A program made the position numbers and the translations under genes. The notes beneath the pieces were generated by a model. It saw only the letters and a list, made by a program, of their open reading frames with translations, had not been told where the DNA came from and did not search any database. A DNA stretch of 64,000 nucleotides, taken from assembly GCF_056746865.1 (NCBI RefSeq), contig NZ_CM163382.1; one strand, given 5' to 3'. Positions 17,149 through 58,157 of this stretch are shown one piece after another; positions within the stretch are counted from its first letter, which is position 1, and every line of letters starts with the position of its first letter.

Positions 17149-17276
17149 GACGAGGTTCCATTATGGTTACAGAAGGGAAGTCCGCTATCAGGGTAACGGG
17201 AGATTTACAAAATTCCAACTATTACTGATGAAAACGCAGGCTGTTTTTGCAAGACGTGAGATTGCTCTGGAAGGCA

Positions 17277-18640: not shown

Positions 18641-18981
18641 ACTTTGTGAACACCGTCATATTTCCATAGAGGCGTGATGATATTTACAGCAATTTTTATC
18701 TATTTATATGATTTCCTTATATTTAAATTAACTAAACGGAAATTTTGTTTCTGATGGAAACTTTATCGACCTGGCACAAAATCCTCTTTCAGACATCCAG
18801 AATGCCAAAAAATAGTATGAAAATTGTGCTATCAGCTAAGAAAAAACTAATCCGCAATAAGAATGCGGGTTATTTTTTGTGCGTAAATGTTGCAATGTAA
18901 TATTCCGTAACAGGATGATCGTTATGGCGGGGTTGCAAATAGATTGCTTGACTTAACAAACAGATAACTTGACAGAAAGGA

Positions 18982-20424: not shown

Positions 20425-20559
20425 AATATTCTCTCTGTTAATAGTCGGAAAAAATAAACACTTGTCCACCCGTAAATGGGGGGATACCTATGTTACCTGG
20501 CATCTGCAATCAGACAAGCAGAATTCGCAAATGCAGCGAAAGATTTCGGAATTAAAGGT

Positions 20560-21842: not shown

Positions 21843-22060
21843 TCTTCAGGAACTGCTGGAGTATACCTTGTTTCGCAATTTATTGAACCCCGATCACACC
21901 ATATGCCACCTTTCTGGTCGATGGCATTACGCGGTGTATGTTATAAAAATGTAGCAATAAAGGCGTTTGTACCTGAAAAGATGAAGATTCTGCATAGCGC
22001 GATTTACGCAACAGGAATAGACTGAACACCAGACTCTATCAAAGATGCTAAAGGTTATTT

Positions 22061-38020: not shown

Positions 38021-39274
38021 ATGTGCGAACATCATCATGCCGCGAAGCACATCCTGTGCTCGCAGTGTGACATGCTGGTGGCGTTACCGCGCCTTGAGCA
38101 TGGTCAGAAAGCGGCATGTCCCCGGTGTGGCACAACGTTAACCGTGGCGTGGGATGCCCCTCGGCAGCGTCCCACCGCCTATGCGTTGGCTGCACTGTTC
38201 ATGCTGTTGCTGTCCAACTTGTTTCCTTTTGTGAATATGAACGTTGCGGGAGTCACCAGTGAAATTACATTACTGGAAATTCCCGGCGTGCTTTTTTCTG
38301 AGGACTACGCCAGCCTCGGCACCTTTTTCCTGTTGTTTGTGCAACTGGTTCCCGCGTTTTGTCTGATAACCATTCTGTTACTGGTGAATCGCGCGGAATT
38401 ACCGGTCCGTTTAAAAGAGCAACTGGCACGAGTGCTTTTTCAACTCAAAACCTGGGGAATGGCGGAGATTTTCCTCGCGGGTGTGCTGGTCAGTTTCGTT
38501 AAACTGATGGCCTACGGCAGCATTGGTGTCGGCAGTAGCTTTCTCCCCTGGTGTTTATTTTGTGTCCTGCAACTGCGCGCCTTTCAGTGCGTTGATCGTC
38601 GCTGGTTGTGGGACGATATCGCCCCGATGCCAGCACTGCGCCAGCCGCTAAAACCTGGCGTCACGGGGATACGTCAGGGGTTACGTTCGTGCTCCTGTTG
38701 TACGGCAATCCTTCCTGCTGATGAACCCGTATGCCCGCGCTGTGGTACTAAAGGGTACGTTCGGCGTAGAAACAGCCTGCAATGGACACTCGCGCTGCTT
38801 GTAACGTCCATCATGCTGTATCTTCCGGCTAATATTTTGCCCATCATGGTGACGGATTTATTAGGTTCGAAGATGCCATCGACGATTCTCGCTGGGGTCA
38901 TCCTGTTATGGAGCGAAGGATCTTATCCCGTCGCTGCGGTTATCTTTCTGGCCAGTATTATGGTGCCAACGTTAAAGATGATCGCCATAGCGTGGCTGTG
39001 CTGGGATGCCAAAGGGCATGGCAAGCGCGACAGTGAAAGAATGCATTTGATTTATGAAGTTGTTGAGTTTGTAGGCCGCTGGTCGATGATTGACGTTTTC
39101 GTTATCGCGGTGCTCTCGGCGCTGGTGCGTATGGGAGGTTTAATGAGTATTTATCCGGCAATGGGTGCATTAATGTTTGCTTTAGTCGTCATAATGACAA
39201 TGTTTTCTGCTATGACGTTTGACCCGCGTTTGTCGTGGGATCGTCAACCTGAATCAGAGCATGAGGAGTCCTGA
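38021..39274 (+). CDS. pqiA: Paraquat-inducible intermembrane transport protein PqiA
   Basis: 417-aa ORF with N-terminal CxxC zinc-ribbon pairs and multiple transmembrane segments. Confidence 0.93.
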   Translation: MCEHHHAAKHILCSQCDMLVALPRLEHGQKAACPRCGTTLTVAWDAPRQRPTAYALAALFMLLLSNLFPFVNMNVAGVTSEITLLEIPGVLFSEDYASLGTFFLLFVQLVPAFCLITILLLVNRAELPVRLKEQLARVLFQLKTWGMAEIFLAGVLVSFVKLMAYGSIGVGSSFLPWCLFCVLQLRAFQCVDRRWLWDDIAPMPALRQPLKPGVTGIRQGLRSCSCCTAILPADEPVCPRCGTKGYVRRRNSLQWTLALLVTSIMLYLPANILPIMVTDLLGSKMPSTILAGVILLWSEGSYPVAAVIFLASIMVPTLKMIAIAWLCWDAKGHGKRDSERMHLIYEVVEFVGRWSMIDVFVIAVLSALVRMGGLMSIYPAMGALMFALVVIMTMFSAMTFDPRLSWDRQPESEHEES

Positions 39275-40919: not shown

Positions 40920-41479
40920 AAAAGTGGCTAGTGACGATTGCAGCACTGTGGCTGGCCGGATGCAGCTCCGGCGAAATTAATAAAAACTATTACCAGTTAC
41001 CTGTGGTGCAGAGCGGTACACAAAGTACCGCCAGCCAGGGTAATCGCCTGTTATGGGTAGAGCAGGTCGCTGTTCCTGACTATCTGGCGGGGAATGGTGT
41101 GGTTTATCAAACCAGTGATGTGAAGTATGTGATTGCCAACAACAACTTGTGGGCCAGCCCGTTGGATCAACAGTTGCGCAACACTCTGGTTGCCAACCTG
41201 AGCACGCAACTGCCCGGCTGGGTGGTTGCCTCCCAGCCTCTGGGAAGCGCCCAGGATACGCTCAATGTTACCGTAACGGAGTTTAACGGGCGATATGATG
41301 GCAAGGTCATTGTCAGTGGTGAGTGGCTGTTGAACCACCAGGGACAACTGATCAAACGTCCGTTCCGTCTGGAAGGGGTGCAAACTCAGGATGGTTACGA
41401 TGAAATGGTTAAAGTGCTGGCCAGTGTCTGGAGTCAGGAAGCCGCTTCTATTGCGCAAGAGATAAAGCGTCTACCGTAA
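40916..41479 (+). CDS. pqiC: Lipoprotein PqiC (YmbA)
   Basis: 187-aa ORF with lipobox LAGCSS; start overlaps the pqiB stop (ATGA). Confidence 0.9.
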   Translation: MKKWLVTIAALWLAGCSSGEINKNYYQLPVVQSGTQSTASQGNRLLWVEQVAVPDYLAGNGVVYQTSDVKYVIANNNLWASPLDQQLRNTLVANLSTQLPGWVVASQPLGSAQDTLNVTVTEFNGRYDGKVIVSGEWLLNHQGQLIKRPFRLEGVQTQDGYDEMVKVLASVWSQEAASIAQEIKRLP

Positions 41480-41734
41480 TCATAAAGATTTGTAAATATA
41501 ACCGTCTCCGGTATGTTGCCTGAGGCGGTTTTTTTGTTTCTAAGGTGCGGAAAAAGTTGTTCCTCTTCACATTTTTTGTACAACTGACATGCCCGTGTAG
41601 CTCACAAATATGACAGTGGCGTGAATTTTGCGCATTGACGGCAGTTATGATTCGCGGTATTGCTTAACTGTGATTGCACATTTAGTAATCACTGTTTTCT
41701 TTTCCACCAGAAACCAGTATGAGGGAAACGAGGC

Positions 41735-41902
41735 ATGAAGAGACAAAAACGAGATCGCCTGGAACGGGCACATCAACGTGGTTATCAGGCCGGCATCGCC
41801 GGACGCTCAAAAGAAATGTGTCCCTATCAGACGCTGAATCAAAGGTCACAATGGCTGGGAGGCTGGCGAGAAGCCATGGCGGACAGGGTAGTAATGGCCT
41901 GA
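41735..41902 (+). CDS. rmf: Ribosome modulation factor (55 aa); too short to appear in the supplied ORF track
   Basis: ATG at 41735 translates to MKRQKRDRLERAHQRGYQAGIAGRSKEMCPYQTLNQRSQWLGGWREAMADRVVMA with stop at 41900-41902; GAGG RBS upstream. Confidence 0.9.
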   Translation: MKRQKRDRLERAHQRGYQAGIAGRSKEMCPYQTLNQRSQWLGGWREAMADRVVMA

Positions 41903-41914
41903 TTCTGTCTCTTT

Positions 41915-41951
41915 AAAAAGAAACCTCCGCATTGCGGAGGTTTCGCCTTTT
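41915..41951. terminator. Bidirectional rho-independent terminator between rmf and fabA
   Basis: Stem aaacctccgc / gcggaggttt flanked by an A-run upstream and a T-run downstream, between convergent genes. Confidence 0.75.
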
Positions 41952-41971
41952 GATACTCTGTCTGATTATAA

Positions 41972-42490
41972 TCAGAAGGCAGACGTATCCTGGAACAGAC
42001 CGACTTTCAGGTCGCTGGCGGTATAGATCAGACGACCATCAACCAGCACTTCGCCATCCGCCAGGCCCATAATCAGACGACGGTTAACAATGCGTTTAAA
42101 GTGAATACGGTAGGTCACTTTTTTCGCTGTCGGCAGTACCTGACCAGTGAATTTCACTTCGCCAACGCCCAGCGCGCGGCCTTTACCTTCGCCGCCCAGC
42201 CAGCCGAGGTAGAACCCTACCAGCTGCCACATTGCGTCCAGGCCCAGACATCCTGGCATAACCGGATCACCAATGAAGTGGCATCCGAAGAACCACAGAT
42301 CCGGATTGATATCCAGTTCTGCTTCAACATACCCTTTGTCGAAGTTACCACCCGTTTCGGTCATTTTGACCACACGGTCCATCATCAGCATGTTCGGTGC
42401 TGGCAATTGCGGACCTTTAGCGCCAAACAGTTCACCGCGACCAGAGGCAAGAAGGTCTTCTTTTGTATAGGATTCGCGTTTATCTACCAT
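41972..42490 (-). CDS. fabA: 3-hydroxydecanoyl-ACP dehydratase/isomerase
   Basis: Track ORF 41972..42688 over-extended; start moved to [23 protein letters not shown] giving 172 aa. Confidence 0.95.
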
Positions 42491-42558
42491 GTTCTCTGTA
42501 AGCCTTATTTTATTGAAGCACGCAGGATAGCTAACACGTGTACGCTGAACAAGTCCGA

Positions 42559-46073: not shown

Positions 46074-46428
46074 TTTTTGCGCCTCGTTATCATCCAAAAT
46101 ACGCCATGAATATCTCCAACGAGATAACACGGTTAAATCCTTCACCGGGGATCTGCTCAATATTAACTCTACCGATATCTTCGGCTTATGCCGAGCACCC
46201 CTGGCGATGTAAAGTCTACAACGTAGTTGAAAACTTACAAGTGTGAACTCCGTCAGGCATATGAAAAAAAAGTCTTGTATAAGGTACGTTTAATCTTTTT
46301 TGTCAGCGACAATTTACAGAAGAAAATCGCGGAAACCGCTTCAGACAAGCCTCCGCAAGGAAAATTAGTCACGACTGAAAGCATTGGCTGGGCGACAAAA
46401 AAAGTTCCAGGATTAATCCTAAATTTAC

Positions 46429-57731: not shown

Positions 57732-58157
57732 GGAATGACGCGCACTATAAACATCCCGATGCGGCGTGTAAACCCCTAATTTGTTTGTTTGCCTGAAAAA
57801 CAGCCAAAAGTGCATTGATAGCGTGAAATAACAGCAGATTGATCATTTCATCACCATGAATTCCTTCTCTTTTACTCGTTTAGCAACCGGCTAAACATCC
57901 CCACTGCCCGGCAAAAAGAAAAATAGGTCCATTTTTATCGCTAAAAGATAAATCCACACAGTTTGTATTGTTTTGTGCAAAAGTTTCACTACGCTTTATT
58001 AACATTACTTTCTGGCGACGTGCGCCAGTGCAGAAGGATGAGCTTTCGTTTTCAGCATCTCACGTGAAGCGATGGTTTGCCTTGCTACAGGGACGTCGCT
58101 TGCCGACCATAAGCGCCCGGTGTCCTGCCGGTGTCGCAAGGAGAAGAGACGTGCGAT

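Follow-up and report, generated by a model that had tools for sequence, protein, structure and literature searches.

The known ribosome modulation factor gene rmf falls below a 60-residue ORF cutoff in 64 kb of Escherichia coli DNA

Introduction

Ribosome modulation factor (Rmf) of Escherichia coli K-12 is described as binding the 30S subunit at the place where the Shine-Dalgarno (SD) sequence of an mRNA pairs with 16S rRNA, by which it would block initiation (PMC10746276). The same protein is described as joining two 70S ribosomes into a 90S dimer, which HPF would turn into the inactive 100S form in stationary phase (PMC10746276). Dimerization of 70S ribosomes and induction in stationary phase via ppGpp are known for the K-12 protein (PMC10746276, PMC7509114), and may be expected of the identical protein described here. 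Moreover, rmf mRNA is said to be stabilized in stationary phase (Aiso 2005, as cited in PMC7509114), and many transcription factors act on the rmf promoter (PMC6134199).

Here we follow up a sequence-only reading of a 64-kb window, by which we mean the whole stretch of E. coli DNA that was analyzed. We conclude, with little room left for doubt, that positions 41735..41902 of the window are E. coli rmf, that the absence of this gene from the accompanying track of open reading frames (ORFs) is an artefact of a length cutoff, and that, as far as our tests reach, the intergenic DNA of the window holds no other conserved protein-coding small ORF.

Results

Genomic setting of the window

The window is collinear with the genome of E. 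coli 118UI (NZ_CP032515.1, positions 1119251-1183250) and differs from it by only four mismatches across its full length; the annotation of 118UI therefore transfers to it base for base. Its genes are arranged in the order lpxK ... mukFEB ... ompF-asnS-pncB-pepN ... ssuEADCB-pyrD ... pqiABC-rmf-fabA ... ompA-sulA ... serT-hyaABCDEF-appC. When positions 41400-42300 were compared by megablast with 5426 complete E. coli genomes, 5425 had a match, in several cases at 100% identity, and the synteny pqiABC-rmf-fabA is found in 118UI, in K-12 and in contigs from Citrobacter, Enterobacter and Klebsiella.

Several other features of the region were recorded along the way. Between pepN and ssuB, at 24761-26109, the window carries an IS3-family IS1397 transposase with a programmed frameshift, where K-12 has 42 bp, and an Rfam match to the REP-derived naRNA4 adjoins this element at 26191-26269. 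In the ssuE/pyrD spacer (30552-30787) the 7-kb elfADCG-ycbUVF fimbrial operon of K-12 and BL21 is absent from the window. The Rfam PyrD_leader match in the same part of the window is intact at 30720-30793, and is an RNA element rather than a peptide leader.

Two observations concern Citrobacter sp. FP75. Its stored fabA call (contig L085, 19780-20406; contig L087, 17809-18435) is 208 amino acids long and overlaps ycbZ, whereas fabA elsewhere encodes 172 amino acids, and the longer call probably has an over-extended start. In the same strain (contig L089, 16051-21203), genes with phage-type Pfam domains (Phage_lysozyme, HP1_ORF34) directly follow aspC, which suggests a prophage; they break the gloC-mepK-ldtD synteny found in E. 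coli, Enterobacter and Klebsiella.

Identity of the 55-residue protein

The plus-strand ORF at 41735..41902 runs from an ATG to a TGA, with 55 codons plus the stop, and its product is a basic protein of 55 amino acids. All 55 residues are identical to the chain named 'Ribosome modulation factor' in Protein Data Bank (PDB) entries 6H4N (chain v), 6H58 and 9IOT, and to the first 55 of the 61 residues of Rmf in 4V8G. The translation scores 79.6 bits against the Pfam family RMF (PF04957; cutoff 27.9, E = 1.7e-22) and 92.1 bits against the NCBIfam equivalog NF011162 (cutoff 40). The gene is annotated at the equivalent position by PGAP in 118UI and as b0953 (NP_415473.1) in K-12, and the stored gene calls of public Citrobacter, Enterobacter and Klebsiella contigs include a 55-residue gene with an RMF domain. 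Ordinary gene finders find rmf; only the length cutoff loses it.

Selection on the reading frame was assessed in 80 Enterobacterales rmf loci, drawn from one genome per species. All 80 have an unbroken ORF that begins with ATG, and in 78 it is 55 codons long. Mean pairwise differences at codon positions 1, 2 and 3 are 0.135, 0.065 and 0.368, a third-position bias of the kind that purifying selection on the protein would leave. PDB identity, family models, annotation, synteny and purifying selection thus agree with the earlier assignment of the 55-residue ribosome modulation factor to 41735-41902.

Nothing was found that argues against this identity, and only two features of the gene are mildly unusual. 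One is a 7-nt gap between two estimates of the transcription start, which is taken up with the promoter below. The other is codon usage: rmf has a codon log-odds score of -0.14 per codon, whereas the native genes that were scored lie between +0.09 and +0.52, and the only other negative score among the genes scored belongs to the frameshifted IS1397 transposase. Rare arginine codons (AGA, AGG, CGA or CGG) account for six of its nine arginine codons. A coding filter based on composition or codon usage would reject rmf, and with the positive control failing in this way codon-usage log-odds were dropped as a coding test.

A wrong-frame ORF in place of rmf

The ORF lister has a default minimum of 60 amino acids. 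At this setting its list over 41480-41971 contains a single entry, 41719..41916 on the plus strand, and rmf is not listed. The claim that rmf is missing from the track through its size is borne out at the 60-residue cutoff, and the absence is purely an artefact of that cutoff. What the claim had left out is that a 65-residue ORF in the wrong frame is listed where rmf should be. At this locus, a length-filtered track misleads as well as omits.

Could the listed ORF be the real gene? Its ATG precedes the rmf start codon by 16 nt and belongs to a different frame, it is the sole ORF of 60 amino acids or more at the locus, and its ATG is invariant in 38 species. However, that ATG is conserved because it sits inside the invariant SD block described below. 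Moreover, the ORF has no Pfam match, scores -0.43 per codon in codon usage, and stays open across this span in just 32 of the 80 loci, the others having stops scattered over many positions. Its cross-species variation peaks at the second codon position rather than the third, a periodicity derived from the rmf frame, and in the published ribosome-profiling rows consulted (see below) the rmf ATG has an initiation peak whereas none is assigned to the ATG at 41719. The 65-residue ORF is refuted as a gene for practical purposes and is best treated as a decoy.

A gene on the opposite strand can be set aside with similar assurance. The minus-strand ORF 41682..41849 starts with GTG and has the same length as rmf, 55 amino acids, but it is intact in only 9 of the 80 orthologous loci and has no annotation in 118UI or K-12. 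Its second codon position falls on the wobble position of rmf, so that its periodicity is wrong and again derived from the rmf frame. We give an overlapping antisense gene virtually no chance.

A third ORF at the locus, 41628..41738, begins with TTG, encodes 36 amino acids and has a stop that overlaps the rmf start codon (ATGA). It was rejected: just 8 of 42 loci keep the frame whole, and the TTG forms part of the -35 hexamer, upstream of where transcription begins.

Sequences that flank the rmf coding region

The translation initiation region of rmf, ATGAGGGAAACGAGGC at 41719..41734 on the plus strand, includes GAGGG at 41721-41725, which sits 9 nt before the ATG and is likely the SD sequence, and a second GAGG at 41730-41733. 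The duplex predicted with the anti-SD sequence has an energy of -6.7 kcal/mol; the median of the annotated genes in the window is -6.1. Across 38 aligned Enterobacteriaceae sequences, none of the 19 bases of ATGAGGGAAACGAGGC-ATG varies.

Further upstream, TTGACG (41635-41640) is invariant in the alignment and is separated from TATTGC or TATTCG (41658-41663) by a spacer of 17 nt that varies freely. This pattern of conservation makes it plausible that 41635..41663 on the plus strand is a sigma-70 promoter of rmf with these hexamers as its -35 and -10 elements; a consensus promoter scan gave no promoter-like site anywhere in 41400-42050. The conserved hexamers would start transcription near 41670. 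A single RpoD promoter has been reported for rmf with its start at -58 from the ATG, or about position 41677 (PMC6134199), 7 nt downstream of the start that the hexamers predict.

The leader that would follow has two conserved features of its own. A terminator-like scan picked out an 8-bp stem-loop at 41670..41692 (plus strand), at or near the 5′ end of the mRNA, in which 97.7% of cells are paired over 38 sequences (slid controls, 16-71%) and three of the eight pairs have compensatory changes. It runs into a pyrimidine-rich tract, CTGTTTTCTTTTCCACCAGA at 41691..41710 on the same strand, whose alignment columns are invariant or nearly so. The fold of the whole leader is no better than that of shuffled sequences (z = -0.37), and no Rfam family reaches its gathering score in the leader. 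The rmf genes of Pseudomonas bear a leader described in Rfam as the 'rmf RNA motif'.

Judged by its alignment, the rmf leader appears more constrained than translation alone would require. The 19-nt block contains two motifs that resemble an SD sequence, together with an ATG upstream and out of frame. A tentative and rather doubtful explanation is that this block, the stem-loop and the pyrimidine tract act as a post-transcriptional switch, linking the stability of the mRNA to the access of ribosomes. UUUCC might, for instance, pair with GGGAA and mask the SD sequence during growth, and a switch of this kind might underlie the stabilization of rmf mRNA in stationary phase.

Downstream of the gene, a scan of both strands found an intrinsic terminator hairpin at 41920-41944. 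Its GC-rich stem of 11 bp is followed by TTTT on the plus strand and by TTTTT on the minus strand, and with a terminator signal in both directions the hairpin therefore also serves the convergent fabA gene. The consensus fold has an energy of -19.8 kcal/mol, and compensatory double changes affect 4 of its 11 pairs (39 sequences). The ribosome binding site and the terminator that had been ascribed to rmf from the sequence are thus both present: the former consists of GAGGG and GAGG with the duplex energy given above, and the latter is held in common with fabA. With these elements rmf is a monocistronic unit, flanked by pqiC and the convergent fabA; it has a promoter of its own, a leader of some 58-65 nt, an SD sequence and a bidirectional terminator in common with fabA.

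A survey of small ORFs in the intergenic DNA

The intergenic DNA of the window amounts to 5931 bp in 41 intervals. Our scan covered ORFs of 10-59 amino acids that start in this DNA, and ORFs of fewer than 10 codons or nested within genes lie outside its scope. It yielded 280 start/stop combinations that represent 170 distinct ORFs. A ribosome-binding-site (RBS) filter calibrated on the annotated genes of the window was passed by 17 of the 170, compared with 16.1±4.1 in dinucleotide-preserving shuffles, 46% of which reach 17. The intergenic DNA of the window has no excess of RBS-positive small ORFs over chance, and the RBS filter alone was dropped as a test.

Homology searches gave a similar picture. 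None of the 98 small ORFs of 20 amino acids or more matches a Pfam family, and the only NCBIfam matches among them are four marginal ones to single members (E = 0.003-0.009), none of which is credible across 98 queries; the Rmf control matches strongly in both searches. Curated annotation of the equivalent stretch of K-12 has no other coding sequence under 60 amino acids and no small RNA; there, ycaR has exactly 60 amino acids and serT is the only RNA gene. At the gathering threshold, Rfam matches in the window are confined to the PyrD leader, the REP-like naRNA4 beside the insertion sequence, and a tRNA-Ser.

Raw tblastn conservation of the small-ORF peptides proved misleading because promoters and 5′ untranslated regions (UTRs) are conserved as DNA and match in several frames and on both strands. 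It was necessary to ask whether start, stop and frame are all kept, and to add codon-position statistics. Within 10 kb on either side of rmf, 53 small ORFs were compared across the 80 Enterobacterales loci. The rmf control is intact in 76 of 78 ungapped matches and varies most at position 3, and no other small ORF in this interval combines integrity with a coding pattern among the 80 loci.

For the rest of the window, loci were extended by exact-protein look-ups in Citrobacter, Enterobacter and Klebsiella and the same test was repeated, and no small ORF with a coding signature was found in these genera. The serT/hyaA and hyaF/appC spacers fall outside this cross-genus comparison, since none of the three genera has hya beside yccA/tusE. 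Towards the left end, some parts were compared with only one or two genera, the far-left spacers with Enterobacter alone.

Candidates rejected on alignment

Several ORFs looked promising at some stage of the survey. Two short minus-strand ORFs, one of 14 amino acids directly upstream of ompA (46216..46260) and one of 15 directly upstream of fabA (42505..42552), are intact across loci, and in both the variation at position 3 does not exceed that at the first two positions. They presumably appear intact through lying in promoter regions that barely vary. Two ORFs with strong RBSs, 20490..20555 on the plus strand and 57745..57846 on the minus strand, are not conserved beyond Citrobacter or have lost their start.

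Three apparent survivors of the cross-genus test, located upstream of aspC, in the ompF 5′ UTR and upstream of pepN, were checked by alignment. The TTG of the 25-residue ORF upstream of aspC falls in a conserved TTGGAA/TTGGCA element, which we infer to be the -35 hexamer of aspC. The 20-residue TTG ORF in the ompF 5′ UTR, a region that we take to be the target of MicF, has no SD sequence and is interrupted in Klebsiella by an indel and a stop.

The ORF upstream of pepN (21981..22025, plus strand) has 14 codons and lies 36 nt upstream of pepN. It is the leading candidate for a functional small ORF, either a small protein or a regulatory upstream ORF (uORF), hidden in the intergenic DNA of the window; the other named cases are 17163..17228, 18677..18754 and an ORF that starts at 33635. 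In favor of the pepN ORF, its start, stop and length are kept in E. coli, Citrobacter, Enterobacter and Klebsiella. However, all eight sites that vary among the four genera lie in codons whose amino acid changes. Additional pepN upstream regions were taken from metagenomes, where 84 unique sequences could be aligned. Among these, the ATG is kept in 68 and the start is lost in 13 (three carry TTG), TGG replaces the stop in 37, and only 42 sequences are intact. Differences at the three codon positions in the metagenomic set are 0.187, 0.143 and 0.143. With such losses of start and stop the 14-codon ORF was rejected as a gene. It lies instead in a block of non-coding DNA, GAAAAGATGAAsATTCTGCrTrGCG...GCAACAGGAATAGACTG, which is conserved across Enterobacterales and is probably a pepN promoter or operator.

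Comparison with ribosome profiling

Published initiation profiling was consulted in Table S1 of Stringer et al., a Ribo-RET reanalysis of growing E. coli BL21, in the plus-strand rows that correspond to this region. At the peak threshold of 0.5 RPM used in that work, the rmf ATG has an initiation peak of 16.4 RPM and ycaR one of 252 RPM. Four intergenic peaks in the same rows fall on ORFs of at least 10 amino acids and map to window positions 17163, 18677, 21981 and 33635. The main text of Weaver 2019 names no gene of the window.

These peaks provide the remaining support for small ORFs hidden in the window, and they are weak: 0.79 RPM at 17163, which also passes the RBS filter, 0.79 RPM at 18677, 1.43 RPM at 21981 in the pepN ORF, and 1.75 RPM at 33635. 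They barely exceed the threshold, and the overall false discovery rate reported by Stringer et al. is 11.7%, with the authors concluding that most such ORFs are not under selection. None of the four Ribo-RET-positive ORFs is conserved across genera: outside E. coli, the start or the stop of 17163..17228 and of 18677..18754 is lost in other genera, and the ORF from 33635 lies in a repeated insert specific to E. coli. Against hidden ORFs in general, the count of RBS-positive candidates equals that expected by chance, and there are no family matches. We therefore consider it improbable that other functional small ORFs are present in the intergenic DNA of the window.

No candidate in the window shows what would mark a leader peptide, a uORF or a small protein, namely integrity across genera together with synonymous-biased change, or a match to a curated small-protein family, although a test of conservation would miss a regulatory uORF that acts regardless of the peptide it encodes. 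The statement in the sequence-only reading that no other convincing small gene could be seen by eye holds under this systematic scan. Its wider suggestion, that further genes of fewer than 60 amino acids might be invisible in the same way, does not survive here: the small-ORF scan finds nothing conserved in the window. Hidden genes of this size are a real possibility in principle, and within the limits of these tests the category is empty in this window.

The profiling rows also contain strong signals inside genes. Within pqiC, an ATG-TGA 'start-stop' at 41127-41132 has a BL21 Ribo-RET peak of 40 RPM, stronger than that of rmf. At the 3′ end of pqiA (39131-39274), in-frame internal starts have peaks of 12.7, 7.1 and 6.8 RPM in BL21 and would give C-terminal membrane fragments of 47, 43 and 33 amino acids. 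The sequences of the pqiC start-stop and of the pqiA internal starts are both present in the window.

A separate observation concerns the ycbX/rlmKL spacer (33621-33863). Its length is 243 bp in E. coli, compared with some 98 bp in Citrobacter, Enterobacter and Klebsiella. The median number of places at which part of this spacer is found in an E. coli genome is two, and roughly 1235 genomes do not cover it in full. The additional DNA looks like a small repeated insert. It carries the ORF with the weak peak of 1.75 RPM noted above, which encodes 72 amino acids in BL21.

Discussion

The ORF at 41735..41902 is the already known E. coli rmf, a textbook gene for which standard pipelines give the right annotation. 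The finding has no biological weight of its own, and its value is methodological. A track with a fixed minimum of 60 amino acids drops a real gene that is essential to hibernation, and displays a wrong-frame 65-residue decoy in its place. Nothing but homology and cross-species conservation told the single genuine small gene apart from 170 ORFs due to chance.

Among proteins that act in the same process, HPF and RaiA (YfiA) also silence ribosomes in stationary phase. They are unrelated to Rmf, bind a different site on the 30S subunit and are not encoded in the window. For proteins with the Rmf/CrpP fold (NCBIfam NF041886, NF033696 and NF041887), a fold-level subfamily model is common to them and to the window protein, which scores 51 bits against it. 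The CrpP-specific and phage-specific NCBIfam models give Rmf scores below their cutoffs (19.8 versus 55 and 24.1 versus 40, respectively), and these family scores argue that the protein is the ribosome factor proper rather than a CrpP or phage type.

Vibrio-type Rmf (PDB 2JRM) belongs to the same family and length class, has the same basic character, and matches the window protein over residues 1-50 (E = 4e-19). The C-terminus of the Vibrio-type and other gammaproteobacterial members of PF04957 diverges from that of the window protein.

The closest system is the K-12 gene itself. The product of b0953 is the identical 55-residue protein, with nothing of substance different, and the K-12 locus has the same neighbors, with pqiC upstream and the convergent fabA downstream. 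The differences lie in the surrounding background, where the window has the IS1397 insertion and is without the elf operon. At rmf itself, K-12 and the window have an upstream spacer of 255 bp in common, and their terminators are arranged alike.
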